Positions 25,196 through 52,627 are shown, numbered from the stretch's first letter. The stretch is DNA of 64,000 nucleotides from Parcubacteria bacterium DG_74_1 (GCA_001303125.1 LJNE01000001.1:81737-145736); one strand, 5' to 3'. Numbers and translations are program-made. Notes: generated by a model not told the origin, from the sequence alone.

Positions 25196-25267
25196 TGGAC
25201 CCGGTGGGATTCGAACCCACGATCTCCGCGATGCGAACGCGGTGTTCTCCCTCTAAACTACAGGCCC
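25196..25267 (-). tRNA. tRNA-Ala (anticodon CGC), no encoded CCA
   Basis: Hand-folded cloverleaf: acceptor GGGCCTG/CGGGTCC with G3:U70, anticodon arm CCGCG-TTCGCAT-CGCGG, T arm GTGGG-TTCGAAT-CCCAC. Confidence 0.85.
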
Positions 25268-25894
25268 AAGTATTTTTTTTAATTCAGCTAAAGAATTAAT
25301 TTTTCTTACTGGTGGATTTTTAATTTTATTTTCCCTATCAATTAAGATTGCTTCTATACCAAGATTTTTAGCCGGGACTAAATCTCTTTCTATTTCATCG
25401 CCTATCATTGTCGATTCTTCCGGCTTTACTCCAAGTTTATCTAAGGGGTATAAAAACGCTCGAGGATCAGGCTTTTTAAATTTAGTTTCTCGGGGAGTAA
25501 AGACTTTAAAATGTTTCTCTAAATTGAGGTTGGAAAATAAAAAAGGGGCAGAACTTGTTAAAATGGCCTTTTGATAGGGCAAATTAATAATCTCCTTAAC
25601 ATCGTCATAAGGCTGGTAGATAAGATTCTTTCGGTAAAAATTAGCTAATTTATTAATAATGTTTTCGTCAGTTCTCTGAATGGTTCTTTCGAGGAGCTTT
25701 TGGCTCAAATCTCGCCAGTTGGTGCATTTGCTCATCAGTTGGGTAAAAAGAGAAGTGAATAATTTTATATCTTCTTCTGCCTTGAGTTGAATCCCGATTT
25801 TTTGATAGAAAGCAAAGAAATCTTCCGGTCTAAGTTTGGTTGCCGGTCGAATTAAGGTCCCAAATAAGTCAAATAAAATTAATTTTGTTTCCAT
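25253..25894 (-). CDS. HAD-superfamily hydrolase (DxFGT variant, subfamily IA-like)
   Basis: METKLILFDLFGTL..., ILTSS and IGDEIERDL motifs. The ATG abuts the tRNA-Pro 3' end, and the last 4 codons plus the stop lie inside tRNA-Ala. Confidence 0.6.
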   Translation of the reverse strand: METKLILFDLFGTLIRPATKLRPEDFFAFYQKIGIQLKAEEDIKLFTSLFTQLMSKCTNWRDLSQKLLERTIQRTDENIINKLANFYRKNLIYQPYDDVKEIINLPYQKAILTSSAPFLFSNLNLEKHFKVFTPRETKFKKPDPRAFLYPLDKLGVKPEESTMIGDEIERDLVPAKNLGIEAILIDRENKIKNPPVRKINSLAELKKILGPVV

Positions 25895-25965
25895 TCGGGG
25901 TGCTGGGAGTTGAACCCAGGCCGCAGAGTCCCGAACCCTGTATACTACCGTTATACTACACCCCG
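25895..25965 (-). tRNA. tRNA-Pro (anticodon CGG), no encoded CCA
   Basis: Acceptor CGGGGTG/CACCCCG (C1:G72 as in bacterial tRNA-Pro), anticodon arm CAGGG-TTCGGGA-CTCTG, T arm CTGGG-TTCAACT-CCCAG. Confidence 0.85.
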
Positions 25966-25977
25966 TTAAACTTAACC

Positions 25978-27483
25978 TTATGTTACCCAATATTTTTTCT
26001 TAGTCATTTCTTCTTGCTTCACCTCAAGCTTTTCTCTTTCTTTTTTGGCTATTTGGGTCAACTTTACTAACTCCTTCTCGGGCATTTTCCCTAATTTTTT
26101 AATTTCTTTCTCTAAAAGACTTTTTTTATTTTTTTGAGGGTCTTCTAAGACATAACCTAAGAGGATATCCAAGATCTGCCCTATTTTAGGACCCGGTGGA
26201 ATACTTAAAATTTTCATAACATCGTTTCCGCTAGCTTTAAGCATTTTCACAGAGATTGGGTCCCGGGAAACTCTTTCAATGACATATTTCAAATGTCTCA
26301 ACTTATAAGGTTCTGCCTTGGGAACTCCCGAGCCAATTCTGTCAGCCATTCTCACTTGTAATAATTCTTCCATATTTTCTGGCCCCACTTGACGGACCAG
26401 TCTTCTTACTGAACTATCGGAAACCTCATCTACATTATAGTAAAAAAGGTGATAACGAACTAATTTGACAATTTTTTCAATGTCTTTTTTGGGGAACCTC
26501 AAACGATTTAATATTTGGGCGGCCATTTTTGCGCCAACTATTTCATGGCCGTAAAAAGTAGCATCCGGGCCCTCTCCCCGCTTCGTCCTTGGTTTACCTA
26601 CATCATGCAACAAAGCAGCTAGCCTTACATATTTGTTAAATTTTTGTTTGGCGGCATAATCTAAAGACCGCAGAGAATGCTCGTAGCATTCATAAATGTG
26701 GTGCTTATTTTGAGTGACCTTATATCCTTCTTCCAATTCTGGAATAGTATATTTCAGTAAACCGAGCTCTCTTAAAAGTTCTATACCCGAAGCCGCTCTT
26801 TCTGACATAATAATCTTCAAGAATTCATCTCTAATTCTTTCTTTTGATATAGCCTGCAGCCAGGGAGAATTTTTTTTAACAGCTTCGGCAGTTTTCCCCT
26901 CAATTTGCCAATCCTCGCCTAGGGTTACAGTAAATCTAATTGCTCTTGTCATACGCAAAGCGTCCTCATTAAAACGCTCCTCGGCCTCACCAACTGCCCT
27001 AATTATTCTTCTCTGTAAGTCTTTTTGCCCATCATATGGGTCAATAATTTTACATTTGGCGTTTTCATTTTGAATCTCCAGGGCCATTGCGTTAATAGTA
27101 AAATCTCTCCTTGCTAGATCTTCTTGAATAGTTTCGGCAAATTTTATTTCATCGGGGTGGCGCTTATCGGTATATTTTGCCTCTGAACGATAGGTGGTAA
27201 TTTCTATTTCTCTTAACCTGGAGTTCTTACTGTTGGTCTGGACGGTAACTGTAAAAAATTGATTACTATAAAAGCTTTTAGGAAATATTTTTTGAATCTC
27301 TTCCGGCCGAGCCAGAGTCGCTACATCCCAATCCTCCGGCTCAACTCCTCTCAAAAAATCTCTGACACAACCGCCAACAATGTAAGCCTCAAGGTCATTT
27401 TTTTTAAACTGCTCAATGACAAATTTTAATTCTTTTGGGATTTCCACCAGTTTAATCTTATCTTGATTTCTCGAATTTTTCAA
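25978..27483 (-). CDS. cca: CCA-adding tRNA nucleotidyltransferase with HD domain
   Basis: YIVGGCVRDFLRG polymerase-beta motif and LLHDVGKP HD motif. TTG start. Confidence 0.8.
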   Translation of the reverse strand: MKNSRNQDKIKLVEIPKELKFVIEQFKKNDLEAYIVGGCVRDFLRGVEPEDWDVATLARPEEIQKIFPKSFYSNQFFTVTVQTNSKNSRLREIEITTYRSEAKYTDKRHPDEIKFAETIQEDLARRDFTINAMALEIQNENAKCKIIDPYDGQKDLQRRIIRAVGEAEERFNEDALRMTRAIRFTVTLGEDWQIEGKTAEAVKKNSPWLQAISKERIRDEFLKIIMSERAASGIELLRELGLLKYTIPELEEGYKVTQNKHHIYECYEHSLRSLDYAAKQKFNKYVRLAALLHDVGKPRTKRGEGPDATFYGHEIVGAKMAAQILNRLRFPKKDIEKIVKLVRYHLFYYNVDEVSDSSVRRLVRQVGPENMEELLQVRMADRIGSGVPKAEPYKLRHLKYVIERVSRDPISVKMLKASGNDVMKILSIPPGPKIGQILDILLGYVLEDPQKNKKSLLEKEIKKLGKMPEKELVKLTQIAKKEREKLEVKQEEMTKKKYWVT

Positions 27484-27596
27484 TCGCCAAGTCCTACAAA
27501 GCAGGGTGAAACAAAAGATGGGACGAAGTTTCGACGGCTACCCGGGTAGCAGGGAGAAACGGAAGAAAGAAACTTGTTTTCTCTGTCCATTTTTAT

Positions 27597-27602
27597 TATA
27601 AT
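27597..27602 (+). promoter_or_regulatory. -10 hexamer TATAAT 10 nt upstream of tRNA-Arg
   Basis: tataat at 27597-27602. The tRNA begins at 27613. Confidence 0.45.
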
Positions 27603-27612
27603 TAGTTTGGCT

Positions 27613-27684
27613 GCCCCCGTAGCGTAATGGATAGCGTGCAAGACTTCGGATCTTGAGGTGAGGGTTCAAATCCTTCCGGGGGCA
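27613..27684 (+). tRNA. tRNA-Arg (anticodon TCG), no encoded CCA
   Basis: Acceptor GCCCCCG/CGGGGGC, anticodon arm CAAGA-CTTCGGA-TCTTG, T arm GAGGG-TTCAAAT-CCTTC. Confidence 0.85.
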
Positions 27685-27686
27685 CT

Positions 27687-28244
27687 ATGAAAAGTTTTCC
27701 AATTTTATTTCTAATCATTCTTTTAGGAGGACTGCTTCTTCCCTCGGTTACTTTAGCAGGAGAATATGACGTTATAATCGGTGGAATTGATACGCACAAT
27801 GTAACCTACGATGGGCTGGTTCCCTGCGGGCGATGCCTAAATATCAATCCTGGGCGTACAGCAGACTCATTAACTGCAAACTATTGCAACGCAAGCACGG
27901 GAGTCTTTGTTGACTTTAAATATATTCCCTGTCAATTCTGTCATCTTTTTATTGTATTAAAGTCGATAGTTGATTTTGTTTTATTATATGTCGTTTTCCC
28001 AATTGGCACTTTATTCCTAATAGTTGGTGGATTAATGTTTTTCTTCTCTGCTGAGAACCCGCAAAAAGCAGAACGAGCCAAGTCTCTATTAACCTCGGTA
28101 GTAATTGGCTTAGTTCTGATTTTTTCTGCCTGGCTGGTTATAGGCTTATTTTTCACCGCTATCGGATTATCTAATTTTGCTCTTTCTTTCACCGGCCCAG
28201 ACAATTGGTTTACAGTAGACTGCGAAGTAACACTCGATTTTTAA
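27687..28244 (+). CDS. TrbC/VirB2-type T4SS pilin-like protein (185 aa) with a small Cys-rich N-terminal region
   Basis: Signal peptide, then GLVPCGRC...CQFCHLF, then two long hydrophobic helices flanking FSAENPQKAERAKSL. This is collinear with the C-terminal 117 aa of the 1280-aa protein. Confidence 0.7.
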   Translation: MKSFPILFLIILLGGLLLPSVTLAGEYDVIIGGIDTHNVTYDGLVPCGRCLNINPGRTADSLTANYCNASTGVFVDFKYIPCQFCHLFIVLKSIVDFVLLYVVFPIGTLFLIVGGLMFFFSAENPQKAERAKSLLTSVVIGLVLIFSAWLVIGLFFTAIGLSNFALSFTGPDNWFTVDCEVTLDF

Positions 28245-28376: not shown

Positions 28377-28449
28377 GCCCCCATAGCTTAATTGGTAAAG
28401 CACCGGTCTCTTAAACCGAGGAGTCCAGGTTCGAGTCCTGGTGGGGGCA
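28377..28449 (+). tRNA. tRNA-Lys (anticodon CTT), no encoded CCA
   Basis: Acceptor GCCCCCA/TGGGGGC, D arm GCTT/AAGC, anticodon loop CTCTTAA, T arm CCAGG-TTCGAGT-CCTGG. One C:A mismatch at the top of the anticodon stem. Confidence 0.8.
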
Positions 28450-28624
28450 CAAGCCCCCGCACTAAAGCTCAGCGTAGAGGAAGCTTCAAACAAGAGACTT
28501 TTTTTTATTTACATAGATAGTATAATAGAATTGAGATATACCAGGTAGTGAAAACTCGACCATTGCCTGGCAGCGATATAATACTTTGCTATGCAAAATA
28601 CTAGTCGAGTTTCTGCTACTTGTC

Positions 28625-28891
28625 ATGTTAAAGCCTGAAGAAAAAACAAAAATTATTGAGAAATATAAAATTCATAAAGCAGACACCGGCTCTGCCGAAA
28701 TTCAGATTGCTTTATTAAGCGAAGAGGTTAAAGAATTGGTTTTACATTTGAAATCCCATCCTAAAGATTTTCATTCAAAGAGGGGCTTACTAAAAATGGT
28801 TGCCAGAAGAAGGAAGTTCCTTAATCACCTTAAGGAGGAGAGCCCCAGGAGATACAAGAATATTATAAAGCAAATAGGATTAAAGAAGTGA
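28625..28891 (+). CDS. rpsO: 30S ribosomal protein S15
   Basis: MLKPEEKTKIIEKYKIHKADTGSAEIQIALLSEEV...HSKRGLLKMVARRRKFLNHL. The start is placed at the ATG at 28625, not the tracked TTG. Confidence 0.9.
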   Translation: MLKPEEKTKIIEKYKIHKADTGSAEIQIALLSEEVKELVLHLKSHPKDFHSKRGLLKMVARRRKFLNHLKEESPRRYKNIIKQIGLKK

Positions 28892-28892
28892 T

Positions 28893-29396
28893 ATGGCAAT
28901 AAAACACATTGGTCAGCGTGTGGGAATACTGATCGATGTCCAGAATCTTTATCATTCGGCTAAGAACTTATATGGGGCACGGGTTAATTTTCGGGAGATT
29001 CTAAAGCTGGCGATTTCGGGAAGAAGCCTTATTCGGGTTTTTGCCTACGTAGTCAGAACTAAAACTGGCGAAGAAAAGCCATTTTTCGAAGCCTTGACCA
29101 AATTAGGGATTGAAACCAGGATCAGAGATCTGCAGGAGTTTTATGGCGGCCTGAAAAAAGCCGACTGGGATGTTGGTATTACCGTTGACGCCATCAGGAT
29201 AGCTCCCGATGTGGATGCGATTGTTTTAGCTTCTGGCGACGGTGATTTTTTACAACTGGTTGAGTATTTAAAGAATCGCGGCAAAAGAATCGAGATTATC
29301 GCTTTCGGTAGATCAGCCTCAACCAAACTAAAAGAGGCAGCTGACGAATTTATCGACCTAGAAAAAGGACTGGGAAAATATCTATTAAAAAAGTAA
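28893..29396 (+). CDS. NYN-domain (LabA/DUF88-like) predicted RNase
   Basis: RVGILIDVQNLYHSAK and VLASGDGDF motifs. There is 1 nt after the rpsO stop and 2 nt before the pnp start. Confidence 0.75.
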   Translation: MAIKHIGQRVGILIDVQNLYHSAKNLYGARVNFREILKLAISGRSLIRVFAYVVRTKTGEEKPFFEALTKLGIETRIRDLQEFYGGLKKADWDVGITVDAIRIAPDVDAIVLASGDGDFLQLVEYLKNRGKRIEIIAFGRSASTKLKEAADEFIDLEKGLGKYLLKK

Positions 29397-29398
29397 TT

Positions 29399-31549
29399 AT
29401 GCAGGAATTTAAACTTGAAATTGAGGGACGTGAGATGATAGCTGAGTTCCAAAATCTGGCCGAACGAGCCAATGGTTCTTGTTTTCTTCGCTATGGCGAT
29501 ACCTTGGTCTTGACCACTGCTGTCATGCCAGAATATGAAGCCAAAAGAGTAGGGTTTTTCCCTTTAACAGTTGAGTACGAAGAAAGATATTATGCTGCTG
29601 GTAAAATCAGGGGTCCTAGATATATTAAAAGAGAAAGTCGGCCCTCTGACGAAGCAATTTGTAACGCCAGATTGATTGACCGAGCCATAAGACCTCTCTT
29701 TCCTAAAAATCTTAACCGCGAAGTTCAAATGGTTAATACGATTTTATCTTGGGACGGCCAAAATGACCCGGATATCTTAGGACTTATGGCATCTTCTCTG
29801 GCTTTAATAACTTCTAATATCCCCTGGTCAGGCCCGGTTGCGGCGGTCAGAATAGGTTACGTTAATAATAAGTTGATTTTAAATCCGACTTATGAAGACA
29901 AACAAAAAAGTCAAATGGATTTAATTTTAGCCGGCGTCGAAGAGAGTAACGGACTTTTAATTAATATGATTGAAGGAAGTTTTGAGGAGCTGGAAGGAGA
30001 TTTAGCCATGGAAGCGTTAAATTTCGCCCGTTCTCATTTAAAAAAACTAATTGATTTTCAAAAACAGATTGCCGAAAAAATAGCTAAGGAGAAAATTGTT
30101 TTACCAAAACCGGCGGTTGATCTGGAATTAGAGAAAGAGATTAAAGAATTTTTAGCCGATAGATTAGAGGCAGCTTTATACCAAGGGGACGGAGTCGAGC
30201 AGATGGAAGAAACAAATAACCTTAGAGAAGAGTTAATCTGTTTTATCGAGAATAAATACCAAGATGCAGGAAAAATTGACTACGCCCAAGGCTTTCTTGA
30301 AAATGAAATCAATAAGCTTGTTCGTCAAAAGGTGATTGAGGAAGAGAAAAGACCAGACGACAGGAAATTAGACGAGCTGAGGTGTCTCAATTGTCAAGCC
30401 GGCCTGTTACCGAGAACCCATGGATCTGGTCTTTTCTGCCGCGGCCAAACTAGATCCCTTTCTATTTTGACCCTAGGGGCACCAGGAGATCAACAATTAT
30501 TAGAAGGGATGGAAATCGTGGGTAAAAAAAGGTTTATGCACCATTATAATTTTCCTCCTTATTCGGTCGGCGAAGTAAGACCAATGAGAGGACCTGGGAG
30601 AAGAGATGTTGGCCATGGAATGTTGGCAGAAAAAAGTCTCCTTCCTCTAATTCCTTCTGTTGAAGAGTTTCCTTATACCATCAGGATAGTTTCAGAAATT
30701 CTATCTTCCAATGGCTCAACCTCAATGGCTTCGGTTTCCTCCTCGTCTTTGGCTTTAATGGATGCCGGTGTCCCCATCAAAAGACCGGCCGCAGGCATCG
30801 CACTGGGATTAATGTCTGATGAGAAAGGTAATTATAAAATCTTAACCGATATCCAAGGACCGGAAGACCATCACGGCGACATGGATTTCAAAATTGCCGG
30901 AACCGAGAAGGGAATAACCGCTATCCAGATGGATGTTAAAATTAGAGGGATCACTGAAAAAATTTTGAAAGACACACTTGAACAGGGGAAAAAGGCAAGA
31001 CTAGAAGTCTTGAGAGAAATAACCAAAGTTTTGGCTAAACCCAGGCTAGAACTATCCCCTTTTGCTCCCCGAATTTTAACCTTACAAATTAATCCGGAAA
31101 AAATCAGGGAAGTAATTGGGCCCGGAGGAAGAGTAATCCATGAGATAATGGGAGAATGCCAAGTTTCAATTGATATTGAAGAAACCGGAAAAATTTTTAT
31201 TACCGCTGAAAAAGAAGGGGCGGCCAAAAAGGCGGTTACTTGGATAGAAAATATTACCCGAGAAGTCAAAATAGGAGAAATTTTTCAAGGAAAAGTAAAA
31301 AGAATTTTGGATTTTGGTGCTTTTGCGGAAATCTTGCCGGGTCAAGAGGGACTAATTCATATCTCCCAATTGGCTCCTTTTAGAGTTGACAAAGTAGAAG
31401 ATATAGTTAAGGTTGGTGACGTTGTACCAGTCAAAGTAATCTCGATCGATGAACAGGGGAGAATAAACCTGTCTTTAAAAGAAGCTAAATCCTCACGCCT
31501 ACGCACAAATGGCAGGGGAAAAATTTATGAAAGAAACAAACAAAAATAA
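29399..31549 (+). CDS. pnp: Polyribonucleotide nucleotidyltransferase (PNPase)
   Basis: Two RNase PH-like halves plus KH and S1 (GKVKRILDFGAFAEILPGQEGLIHISQL). 716 aa. Confidence 0.9.
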   Translation: MQEFKLEIEGREMIAEFQNLAERANGSCFLRYGDTLVLTTAVMPEYEAKRVGFFPLTVEYEERYYAAGKIRGPRYIKRESRPSDEAICNARLIDRAIRPLFPKNLNREVQMVNTILSWDGQNDPDILGLMASSLALITSNIPWSGPVAAVRIGYVNNKLILNPTYEDKQKSQMDLILAGVEESNGLLINMIEGSFEELEGDLAMEALNFARSHLKKLIDFQKQIAEKIAKEKIVLPKPAVDLELEKEIKEFLADRLEAALYQGDGVEQMEETNNLREELICFIENKYQDAGKIDYAQGFLENEINKLVRQKVIEEEKRPDDRKLDELRCLNCQAGLLPRTHGSGLFCRGQTRSLSILTLGAPGDQQLLEGMEIVGKKRFMHHYNFPPYSVGEVRPMRGPGRRDVGHGMLAEKSLLPLIPSVEEFPYTIRIVSEILSSNGSTSMASVSSSSLALMDAGVPIKRPAAGIALGLMSDEKGNYKILTDIQGPEDHHGDMDFKIAGTEKGITAIQMDVKIRGITEKILKDTLEQGKKARLEVLREITKVLAKPRLELSPFAPRILTLQINPEKIREVIGPGGRVIHEIMGECQVSIDIEETGKIFITAEKEGAAKKAVTWIENITREVKIGEIFQGKVKRILDFGAFAEILPGQEGLIHISQLAPFRVDKVEDIVKVGDVVPVKVISIDEQGRINLSLKEAKSSRLRTNGRGKIYERNKQK

Positions 31550-52298: not shown

Positions 52299-52627
52299 TT
52301 TGCTTTTCGGAATAGCTTGTCTATTGTTTCGTTTATCTCCCAAAAGTCTTTTTCTTCCAGCCCAGAGGCAGCTATCAAAACCAAGTCCACGCCCTTTTTA
52401 ACCCTTTTTATTTTAAGTCTGACTAATTCGCTTAGCTTTCTTCTAATTTTGTTGCGTAAGGTAGCTTTTTTGGAAATTTTCTGAGAAACAACAAAAGCAA
52501 CCCTTGGTTTTCTAAAATTATTTTTAACTACTTTCAAAACCAAAAAGCCCTCCTTGACTCCCTTACCTCTTTTAAAAACTTTCTCGATGTCTTTTCCCCG
52601 TTTTAGTCTATTTATTTTTGGCAACAT
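52283..52627 (-). CDS. rnpA: RNase P protein component
   Basis: Basic 114-aa protein with [10 protein letters not shown] (RNR-like motif). The start codon directly follows the rpmH stop. Confidence 0.8.

Follow-up and report, generated by a model that had tools for sequence, protein, structure and literature searches.

The 64,000-nucleotide (nt) stretch of Parcubacteria bacterium DG_74_1 analyzed here (GCA_001303125.1, LJNE01000001.1:81737-145736; hereafter the window) contains protein-coding sequences (CDSs) that start 0 or 2 nt past the 3' ends of tRNA genes, and one that ends inside the next tRNA gene. This layout is genuine as well as old, and is a genome-wide and lineage-wide trait. We consider it about an even bet (probability roughly 0.5) that the genes concerned are co-transcribed as tRNA-mRNA units, and that excision of the tRNAs by RNase P and an endonuclease other than RNase Z would give leaderless or nearly leaderless mRNAs. 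Observed directly are the geometry of the junctions, their conservation, the inventory of processing enzymes and the lack of Shine-Dalgarno (SD) and anti-SD sequences.

Abutted genes in the window and in the genome

The genome that carries the window (G000) is a draft of 13 contigs and 584,570 bp, 91.8% complete, with 38-40% G+C and 39 tRNA genes; together with 30 relatives it forms a comparison set of 31 genomes of the order. Genes were called crudely, as the longest open reading frames (ORFs) of at least 90 codons with the most-upstream start, followed by greedy removal of overlaps (569 kept of 715), and start codons were assigned from ORFs and homology. The features at the junctions are the following (positions in the window; aa, amino acids).

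25196..25267, minus strand: tRNA-Ala(CGC), G3:U70 present (from the sequence), CCA not encoded (ARAGORN; Rfam 66.5 bits)
25253..25267, minus strand: HAD/tRNA-Ala overlap, 15 nt, tRNA-Ala positions 1-15 (sequence)
25253..25894, minus strand: HAD-family hydrolase CDS, 213 aa (Pfam Hydrolase/HAD_2; NCBIfam HAD-IA subfamily models; four-genome alignment)
25895..25965, minus strand: tRNA-Pro(CGG), CCA not encoded, discriminator A at 25895 (ARAGORN; Rfam 60.2 bits; acceptor stem 7/7 pairs)
25978..27483, minus strand: cca, CCA-adding tRNA nucleotidyltransferase, 501 aa (Pfam PolyA_pol head, RNA-binding and HD domains)
27598..27603, plus strand: TATAAT hexamer, some 10 nt ahead of the tRNA-Arg 5' end, a possible -10 box for the plus-strand unit (by eye)
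27613..27684, plus strand: tRNA-Arg(UCG), CCA not encoded, discriminator A at 27684 (ARAGORN; Rfam 68.6 bits)
27687..28244, plus strand: T4SS/TrbC-type pilin CDS, 185 aa (Pfam T4SS_pilin PF18895)

ARAGORN, Rfam and the sequence confirmed all coordinates that an earlier interpretation of the same DNA (the sequence-only reading) had given for the tRNA-Pro/HAD, HAD/tRNA-Ala and tRNA-Arg/pilin junctions and for the gap after cca. On the minus strand, cca is the first gene of the unit and its stop (25978-25980) lies 12 nt ahead of the 5' end of tRNA-Pro (25965). The HAD ATG at 25894 follows the tRNA-Pro discriminator A (25895) with a 0-nt spacer, and the HAD frame ends ...CTT GGG CCT GTA GTT TAG, where GGG corresponds to tRNA-Ala positions 1-3 and the final four codons and the TAG are inside the tRNA. 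On the plus strand, the pilin ATG (27687), which is the sole start candidate of its ORF, is located 2 nt past the tRNA-Arg discriminator, with the spacer 'CT'. As had been noted, all four tRNAs of the window lack an encoded CCA, and the gene for a CCA-adding enzyme immediately precedes tRNA-Pro. The co-linear arrangement that had been described held as well: a scan of the minus strand from 25196 to 27483 revealed no terminator-like site at all and no promoter-like site within a tRNA, the promoter scan being uninformative overall (8 promoter-like matches versus 9.8 expected in shuffles). The TATAAT hexamer before tRNA-Arg was left uncalled by the consensus scan, given a weak -35.

Wrong start calls, pseudo-tRNAs or a mis-assembled metagenomic bin could mimic such junctions, and the state of the assembly (13 contigs, 91.8% complete) together with starts taken from ORFs and homology leaves some room for this. 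However, an artefact is a very remote prospect and is largely refuted. The four tRNAs score 60-72 bits against an Rfam gathering score of 29, their acceptor stems pair 7/7 and identity elements such as G3:U70 are correct, while the same junctions occur in independently assembled genomes from many studies. N-terminal homology also opens at the abutted Met, with homologue alignments of abutted genes beginning at residues 1-4; for HAD, the Pfam profile match opens at residue 4 and the next in-frame start would lose the catalytic D9.

A genome-wide count of starts near tRNA 3' ends, suggested by the sequence-only reading, was run with a script that set the discriminator by acceptor pairing and then listed downstream ORF starts (ORFs of at least 80 codons only). 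The ATG of a 138-505-aa ORF was found 0-2 nt past the discriminator at 4 of the 39 tRNAs of G000, as listed below with two wider junctions. Together with the conservation described further on, this recurrence points beyond coincidence.

tRNA-Pro-CGG to HAD (213 aa): spacer 0 nt
tRNA-Glu-UUC to a 505-aa protein without Pfam or NCBIfam family: spacer 1 nt
tRNA-Ser-CGA to DUF4446 (138 aa): spacer 2 nt
tRNA-Arg-UCG to pilin (185 aa): spacer 2 nt
tRNA-Ala-GGC to GpsA: spacer 8 nt
tRNA-Arg-GCG (with CCA) to RecG: spacer 10 nt

Two of these junctions form a chain, in which tRNA-Ala(GGC) is followed after 8 nt by gpsA, gpsA after 6 nt by tRNA-Ser(CGA), and the latter after 2 nt by DUF4446. The same whole-genome census in two near-complete relatives from other families revealed abutment at 2/44 tRNAs in G013 (Arg-GCG, C, ATG of a RecG orthologue; Ala-UGC, CAT, ATG) and at 1/42 in G008 (Leu-CAG, CT, ATG of an RNase J orthologue at 62% identity). 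The 80-codon limit, which also applied to the pilin, tRNA-Glu and DUF4446 loci of relatives described below, left out tRNA-Pro(GGG) of G013, where a short frame has its ATG right at the tRNA end. 'C' and 'CT' are the most frequent spacer sequences at abutted junctions. All starts up to 4 nt past a tRNA are ATG (4/4 at the abutted junctions of G000 and 24/24 at the tRNA-Glu junction described below), versus 451 of 569 crude starts genome-wide.

The bases that follow the discriminator show a pattern of their own. CCA is encoded in 3/39 tRNA genes of G000, yet C stands at position 74 in 28/39 (background C 20%), and the bases after the discriminator are often 'CA' (15) or 'CT' (7). C74 is retained even at most tRNA-ATG junctions of 1-2 nt, possibly because it pairs with loop L15 in RNase P RNA of type A.

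Conservation of starts and stops at RNA genes

The sequence-only reading had left room for a HAD frame not kept in relatives. Instead, HAD is conserved, with 65 invariant columns over the four orthologues aligned, including M1, the catalytic D9 and a GDExERD motif, and its tRNA flanks are kept. The orthologues occur in 4 of the 31 genomes and span three families, and the order tRNA-Pro(CGG), HAD, tRNA-Ala(CGC) is present in 4/4 of these genomes, with upstream spacers of 0, 0, 2 and 3 nt. A fifth HAD match (27% identity) was rejected, as it is a different HAD and not an orthologue. The position of the HAD C-terminus varies, lying 15 nt inside tRNA-Ala in G000 (...ILGPVV, then stop), 10 nt inside it in G002 (...ILGP, then stop; the TAG is U8-A9-G10), exactly at the tRNA-Ala 5' end in G010 and about 60 nt ahead of it in G025. 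In G002, a further ORF, of 127 aa, has its ATG 1 nt past this tRNA-Ala. The HAD orthologue of G025 (L024 1495-1947, minus strand) is without about 60 residues (alignment columns 26-85, probably the cap region); this shortened form retains the catalytic motifs and a tRNA-Pro, CAT, ATG junction.

Homologues of the pilin, whose N-terminus is signal-peptide-like (by eye), were found in 31/31 genomes of the order. At 20 loci examined, a co-oriented tRNA-Arg(UCG) lies upstream in 15 and tRNA-Lys(CUU) downstream in 17. The tRNA-Arg-to-pilin spacer is 1-4 nt in 7 of these 15 loci and 26-88 nt in the other 8.

Between tRNA-Glu and the gene for the 505-aa protein, 8 of the 20 loci examined (7 families) have a spacer of 1-2 nt. 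A species-level scan was also performed on the best 80 loci among species-representative genomes, which partly overlap the 31 relatives, scoring co-oriented tRNAs up to 400 nt upstream of an ORF of at least 450 codons. These loci are placed by name among Parcubacteria/Paceibacteria (Nealson-, Portnoy- and Staskawiczbacteria, Paceibacter). The spacer was at most 2 nt in 24 loci, 3-4 nt in none, 5-20 nt in 16 and more than 20 nt in 13, and no tRNA was scored in 27/80. Proteins encoded at the 24 abutted loci are only 54-86% identical. The 505-aa protein itself (L001:4471-5988, minus strand; G000:C1:34470-35987) has no Pfam or NCBIfam match and is lineage-wide, present in 27/31 genomes at 50-86% identity; among species-representative genomes, at least 457 stretches code for a related protein.

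By comparison, just 2 of the 18 loci with a tRNA-Ser(CGA) ahead of DUF4446 have a 2-nt spacer; the longest, 84 nt, is that of G001, a genome of the same genus as G000. With 2 nt in G000 and 84 nt in G001, some abutments must therefore be recent.

Stops are also found close to RNA genes. In G000, 12 of 20 crude CDS-to-tRNA junctions have the stop 0-25 nt before the tRNA 5' end, and HAD is the only CDS that overlaps a tRNA. CDS ends lying 1-22 nt within tRNA 5' ends were found in several genomes. The census of G013 and G008 revealed long frames that extend 10-22 nt into tRNA-Ile, tRNA-Ser(CGA) and tRNA-Ser(UGA), a 352-codon frame of G025 (L079) stops 22 nt within tRNA-Ser(CGA), and the last base of the stop codon is base 1 of tRNA-Lys in G014 (L042) and of tRNA-Arg in G007 (L044). 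A comparable case concerns tmRNA: on contig C13 of G000, smpB (L004 1062-1517) ends with a TAG at 1515-1517, 17 nt inside the tmRNA gene, which begins at L004 1501, and in G013 no base separates the smpB stop from the start of tmRNA. Given the position of this stop, RNase P processing of tmRNA would remove the stop codon from the mRNA of its partner protein.

Initiation, processing enzymes and competing explanations

No G-rich SD peak was detected upstream of 567 crude gene starts in G000; these regions are A/T-rich, with T at -1 in 52%. In G013, of the same order, the 3' tail of 16S rRNA (L100, G013:C9, 6800-7241) reads GGAACAAUUAAUAU versus the Rfam consensus GGAUCACCUCCUUU (RF00177 positions 1520-1533), with AUUAA where CCUCC is expected, and the anti-SD core is thus lost. 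A tail without CCUCC agrees with the anti-SD loss previously reported in a subgroup of Parcubacteria (Tsurumaki et al., 2022; PMC9297842, available part). The same part of that paper gives 3-4 S1 domains for bS1 in the Candidate Phyla Radiation (CPR); G000 encodes a short bS1-like protein in a frame of 371 codons, which scored under the cut-off for rpsA.

Over the 20 nt that precede each of the four abutted genes, A+T is 30-40% versus a median of 75%, so that they rank among the lowest 0.2-2% of the 567 genes. As these bases belong to G+C-rich tRNA 3' halves, the usual A/U-rich leader is unusable for the four genes, and start codons that touch a tRNA therefore need a leader-independent route. 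The first gene of the pilin unit is tRNA-Arg, and tRNA-Glu has no long-frame end within 30 nt; with no preceding CDS, termination-reinitiation is unlikely for the pilin gene and for the gene after tRNA-Glu. The consensus scan revealed no promoter-like site just upstream of the abutted starts, in the tRNA 3' halves, so that a leaderless end could form only by processing and would carry a monophosphate. For leaderless translation the AUG has to be at the 5' terminus, and an acceptor stem that remained folded 0-2 nt ahead of it would fill the ribosomal E-site and exit path.

The enzymes relevant to such processing are partly encoded in the window, in the plus-strand unit (listed here with its other downstream genes) or, for rnpA, elsewhere.

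28377..28449, plus strand: tRNA-Lys(CUU), after the pilin gene and before rpsO (ARAGORN; Rfam 71.7 bits)
28586..28891, plus strand: rpsO, ribosomal protein S15 (Pfam Ribosomal_S15, matching the longest ORF from residue 20 on)
28893..29396, plus strand: NYN-domain protein, 167 aa, candidate endoribonuclease (Pfam NYN PF01936, E 1.3e-33)
29399..31549, plus strand: pnp, polynucleotide phosphorylase (PNPase), 716 aa (ORF; two RNase_PH domains in one frame)
52301..52624 (G000:C1:134037-134360), minus strand: rnpA, RNase P protein subunit (PF00825, 75.9 bits)

The true start of rpsO is probably the ATG at about 28625, and the two RNase_PH domains of pnp lie in one 734-codon frame (G000:C1:111159-112511). 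RNase P RNA is present (RF00010, 129 bits versus a gathering score of 100; C2:35686-36116) alongside RnpA, in agreement with the idea that an RNase P cut at tRNA-Ala would remove the HAD stop codon. The sequence-only reading had further proposed that RNase Z cuts after the discriminator, and this part found no support. No genome of the order (0/31) has a protein above the cut-off of the RNase Z model TIGR02651, the best score in G000 being 30.9 bits versus 293. Diverged RNase Z candidates are present in G004 and G016, and tblastn with these RNase-Z-like ORFs against G000 gave nothing comparable, only a weak metallo-beta-lactamase (MBL) match. RNase Z was thus rejected as the 3' nuclease, although its absence from G000 is not proven in a genome 91.8% complete. 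The 210-aa MBL protein that gave the 30.9-bit score (L012 1432-2064) was considered as a mini RNase Z and also rejected, as it occurs in only 4/31 genomes and has generic NCBIfam MBL matches of about 30 bits or less. Where a check for RNase Z and tmRNA genes had been suggested, the latter was found, together with SmpB, and the former was not.

RNase J, RNase Y and PNPase are also present in G000. RNB enzymes (RNase R/II) and RNase E/G were not found (DEDD-type RNase T/D, RNase III and YbeY were outside the search), nor was a separate RNase PH, whose domain occurs only within PNPase; among the families searched, PNPase is the sole 3'-5' exoribonuclease. Given that 36/39 tRNA genes are without CCA and the CCA-adding enzyme is retained in the absence of a recognizable RNase Z, another tRNA 3'-processing activity must exist. 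The NYN protein is a candidate for the tRNA 3' cut, nothing more. Its gene is positioned 1 nt past rpsO and 2 nt ahead of pnp in the putative tRNA-Arg operon, the protein is unusually conserved (27/31 genomes, 64-95% identity), and the acidic residues D15, D91, D93, D99, D116 and D118 are invariant over 10 sequences, as expected of NYN ribonucleases of the LabA/MARF1 type. Its predicted structure (predicted local distance difference test, pLDDT, 73.7) matched 2qip (E 3.6e-14) and the MARF1 NYN domain (E 1e-4) in Foldseek. The catalytic domain of PRORP belongs to the NYN nucleases, as do the MNU enzymes of plant mitochondria, which have been linked to the maturation of mRNA 5' ends (PMC10941002, available part). 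By coordinates, the NYN gene adjoins the pilin/tRNA-Lys locus in many of the genomes that have it.

The proposed mechanism would run as follows. The window would hold two divergent tRNA-mRNA operons, cca-tRNA-Pro-HAD-tRNA-Ala on the minus strand and tRNA-Arg-pilin-tRNA-Lys-rpsO-NYN-pnp on the plus strand, read by ribosomes that would not depend on SD pairing. With no 5' leader needed for SD, deletion may have squeezed starts to 0-2 nt from a tRNA and pushed stops into the next one. RNase P would cut at tRNA 5' ends, and a second endonuclease, not RNase Z, at the discriminator or one base past it. The released mRNAs would then start with AUG or with 1-2 extra bases (AUG, CAUG, CUAUG) and be translated from the 5' end, and the CCA-adding enzyme would finish the tRNA. 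For a CDS that ends in a tRNA or in tmRNA, such as HAD and smpB, a transcript would give either a stop-containing mRNA or the mature RNase P product, the two being mutually exclusive; transcripts cut first would become non-stop mRNAs, to be taken care of by tmRNA-SmpB. Excision with initiation at the 5' end is favored because an acceptor stem at -1 would be a steric obstacle, ATG is used exclusively, the tRNAs contain no promoter-like site and the 1-nt tRNA-Glu junction has been stable for long.

A number of points weigh against this reading. That the genes are co-transcribed, where the cuts fall, how translation starts and that the two products compete are all deduced from DNA, and neither RNase Z nor RNase E/G was found to make the 3' cut. 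The assembly of G000 is without 16S rRNA (motif search; RF00177), so anti-SD loss is seen only in a relative. The predicted folding of positions +1 to +40 of the four abutted mRNAs is ordinary (-0.1 to -3.2 versus a median of -2.6 kcal/mol). A leaderless mRNA with a 5' monophosphate would be a good substrate for RNase J, which G000 encodes. Finally, gaps of 0-2 nt at tRNA-CDS junctions (4/19) are not clearly unlike those between CDSs (36/457, approximate as all CDS-CDS counts are, given the crude gene calls), and spacers pooled over junctions are near-continuous (0-4, 5-14 and at least 20 nt), with no sharp division into leaderless and leadered genes except at tRNA-Glu. A strictly bimodal distribution of spacers was accordingly rejected, being absent from the pooled junction types; only tRNA-Glu has an empty 3-4 nt class.

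Since tRNA-CDS gaps resemble CDS-CDS gaps, neutral compaction could account for the layout. On this account, deletion in a lineage free of SD leaders would have brought the genes together with no punctuation logic, expression would be poor or ad hoc, and the competition would have no regulatory role. Packing is indeed tight overall (117 overlapping, 36 at 0-2 nt and 68 at 3-10 nt among 457 crude co-directional pairs in G000), and tRNA-CDS abutment is in line with it, not beyond. Just 1-4 tRNAs per genome are concerned, and several of them have C34 (CGG, CGC, CGA), for which demand is probably low at 38% G+C. The DUF4446 spacer (2 versus 84 nt) and the register of the HAD overlap (15 versus 10 nt in G000 and G002) likewise point to an evolutionarily fluid state. 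However, the junction of the type tRNA-Glu, C, ATG is kept in 24/80 species-level loci at 54-86% protein identity, with none at 3-4 nt, and the abutted genes include RNase J and RecG orthologues, GpsA and the 505-aa protein (27/31 genomes), which must be adequately expressed. Compaction accounts for the origin of the layout but not for initiation beside a tRNA, and as a full explanation we find it improbable.

The main rival to excision is a precursor in which the mRNA is translated while the tRNA is still attached at its 5' end, the RNase P-trimmed tRNA shielding it from RNase J. The mRNA would then be the 3' trailer of the tRNA, whose 3' end would mature through 3'-to-5' decay of the mRNA by PNPase after a downstream cut, e.g., by RNase P at the next tRNA. 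This fits the nuclease inventory, as RNase Z, RNase E/G, RNB and a separate RNase PH were not found while PNPase, RNase J and RNase Y were, and pnp is located in the tRNA-Arg operon. An RNase P cut at tRNA-Ala would bare the 3' end of the HAD mRNA, and the occurrence of 5-14 nt spacers suggests that initiation near a tRNA may be tolerated. It does not fit the ribosome geometry, though: a 7-bp G+C-rich acceptor stem would probably need partial melting to bring the AUG into the P site. PNPase stalls several nucleotides before stable stems, which makes an exact N73 or C74 end unlikely, and the exclusive use of ATG at abutted starts fits 5'-end-dependent initiation better. We therefore regard an attached tRNA as rather doubtful.

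A broader form of the excision reading is that an entire order or class of bacteria, free-living or episymbiotic (Paceibacteria-type Parcubacteria), has converged on the expression logic of mitochondria, with anti-SD-less ribosomes, AUG ends made by excision, a nuclease other than RNase Z (the NYN protein being a candidate) and stops buried in RNA genes as switches. The buried stops (HAD/tRNA-Ala, gpsA-like/tRNA-Ser and smpB/tmRNA) would then decide between protein and RNA, tmRNA-SmpB would clear the losing transcripts, and the smpB/tmRNA overlap would act as an autoregulatory loop. We put this forward tentatively and hold it to be unlikely in its full extent.

Related systems and significance

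The components of the proposed mechanism are known, namely mitochondrial punctuation, leaderless mRNAs, tRNA-mRNA operons and anti-SD loss in Parcubacteria. In the full-text literature (subscription journals and supplements lay outside the search), we found no report of tRNA-abutted starts, stops inside tRNAs, tRNA punctuation or a missing RNase Z in CPR/Patescibacteria.

The closest likeness is to the punctuation model of mitochondria (Ojala-Montoya-Attardi), where RNase P and RNase Z/ELAC2 release the messages (PMC10941002, in the part available). As there, tRNAs lie directly between coding regions with spacers of 0-2 nt, mRNA 5' ends would coincide with the AUG or lie a few bases from it, SD and anti-SD are lacking, CCA is not encoded but added post-transcriptionally and RNase P is available. 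The layout of the window matches, as known from its DNA, the minus-strand spacers being 12, 0 and -15 nt and the plus-strand spacer 2 nt. In addition, the ribosomal-protein losses of CPR bacteria resemble those of mitoribosomes (PMC9297842, available text). Unlike in mitochondria, where the whole genome is concerned, each of these genomes has just 1-4 of about 40 tRNAs in such junctions; in addition, RNase P is of the bacterial RNA-protein type and the search for RNase Z found none. Stops are also not completed by polyadenylation: the HAD stop is a full TAG inside tRNA-Ala, and as the HAD message would end in ...CUU after an RNase P cut, added A residues could not make a stop.

Mixed tRNA-mRNA operons are familiar from bacteria, as in thrU-tyrU-glyT-thrT-tufB of Escherichia coli, a single unit separated by RNase P and other nucleases. 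To our knowledge, they keep a normal SD leader of tens of nt or more between tRNA and CDS, unlike the 0-2 nt spacers described here, in a genome with no SD system.

Actinobacteria, Deinococcus and Archaea, with their leaderless mRNAs, offer another likeness, in that start at a 5'-terminal AUG without SD would apply here too, with AUG strongly preferred. In the mycobacterial type, according to the part of PMC4633059 at hand, transcription starts at the A of the AUG and a -10 box is found about 7 nt upstream. The abutted genes differ, as a G+C-rich tRNA 3' half occupies the -10 position and promoter-like hexamers are lacking.

With the anti-SD-less Parcubacteria described in the accessible portion of PMC9297842, our genomes share a 16S rRNA without CCUCC (G013), a short bS1-like protein and the lack of an SD signal in G000. 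Mollicutes resemble them as reduced genomes without RNase Z (Grosjean et al., 2014; PMC4014445, partial text). According to the same portion of that paper, however, all tRNA genes of Mollicutes encode CCA and the CCA-adding enzyme has been lost, while in G000 36/39 are CCA-less and the enzyme is kept, so the loss of RNase Z here needs a different explanation. Maturation of CCA-less tRNAs of the Bacillus subtilis type combines RNase Z with the CCA-adding enzyme; G000 has the CCA-less genes and the CCA-adding enzyme, without a detectable RNase Z.

Several consequences follow for the study of these bacteria. The available part of PMC9297842 states the anti-SD loss and offers no mechanism of start selection, nor does it give an account of tRNA-CDS abutment or RNase Z. 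Starts that touch a tRNA cannot use a leader-based mechanism and are therefore natural test cases for start selection in Parcubacteria without anti-SD. They also make mitochondria-like, punctuated, leaderless expression in bacteria testable at defined coordinates. In addition, should gene callers keep clear of tRNA genes or mask them, as they tend to do, such starts would be mis-called and CDSs that end in a tRNA or tmRNA truncated.

Finally, some minor features of the window deserve mention. Rfam revealed nothing at the gathering score over the whole window beyond the four tRNAs. The cca product scored 290 bits (TIGR02692, cut-off 439) and 259 bits against NCBIfam CCA tRNA nucleotidyltransferase models, both under the equivalog cut-offs. 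The divergent intergenic region between cca and tRNA-Arg (27484-27612) contains a G+C-rich palindrome at about 27540-27552 (...CTACCCGGGTAGC...), in the likely leader of cca.

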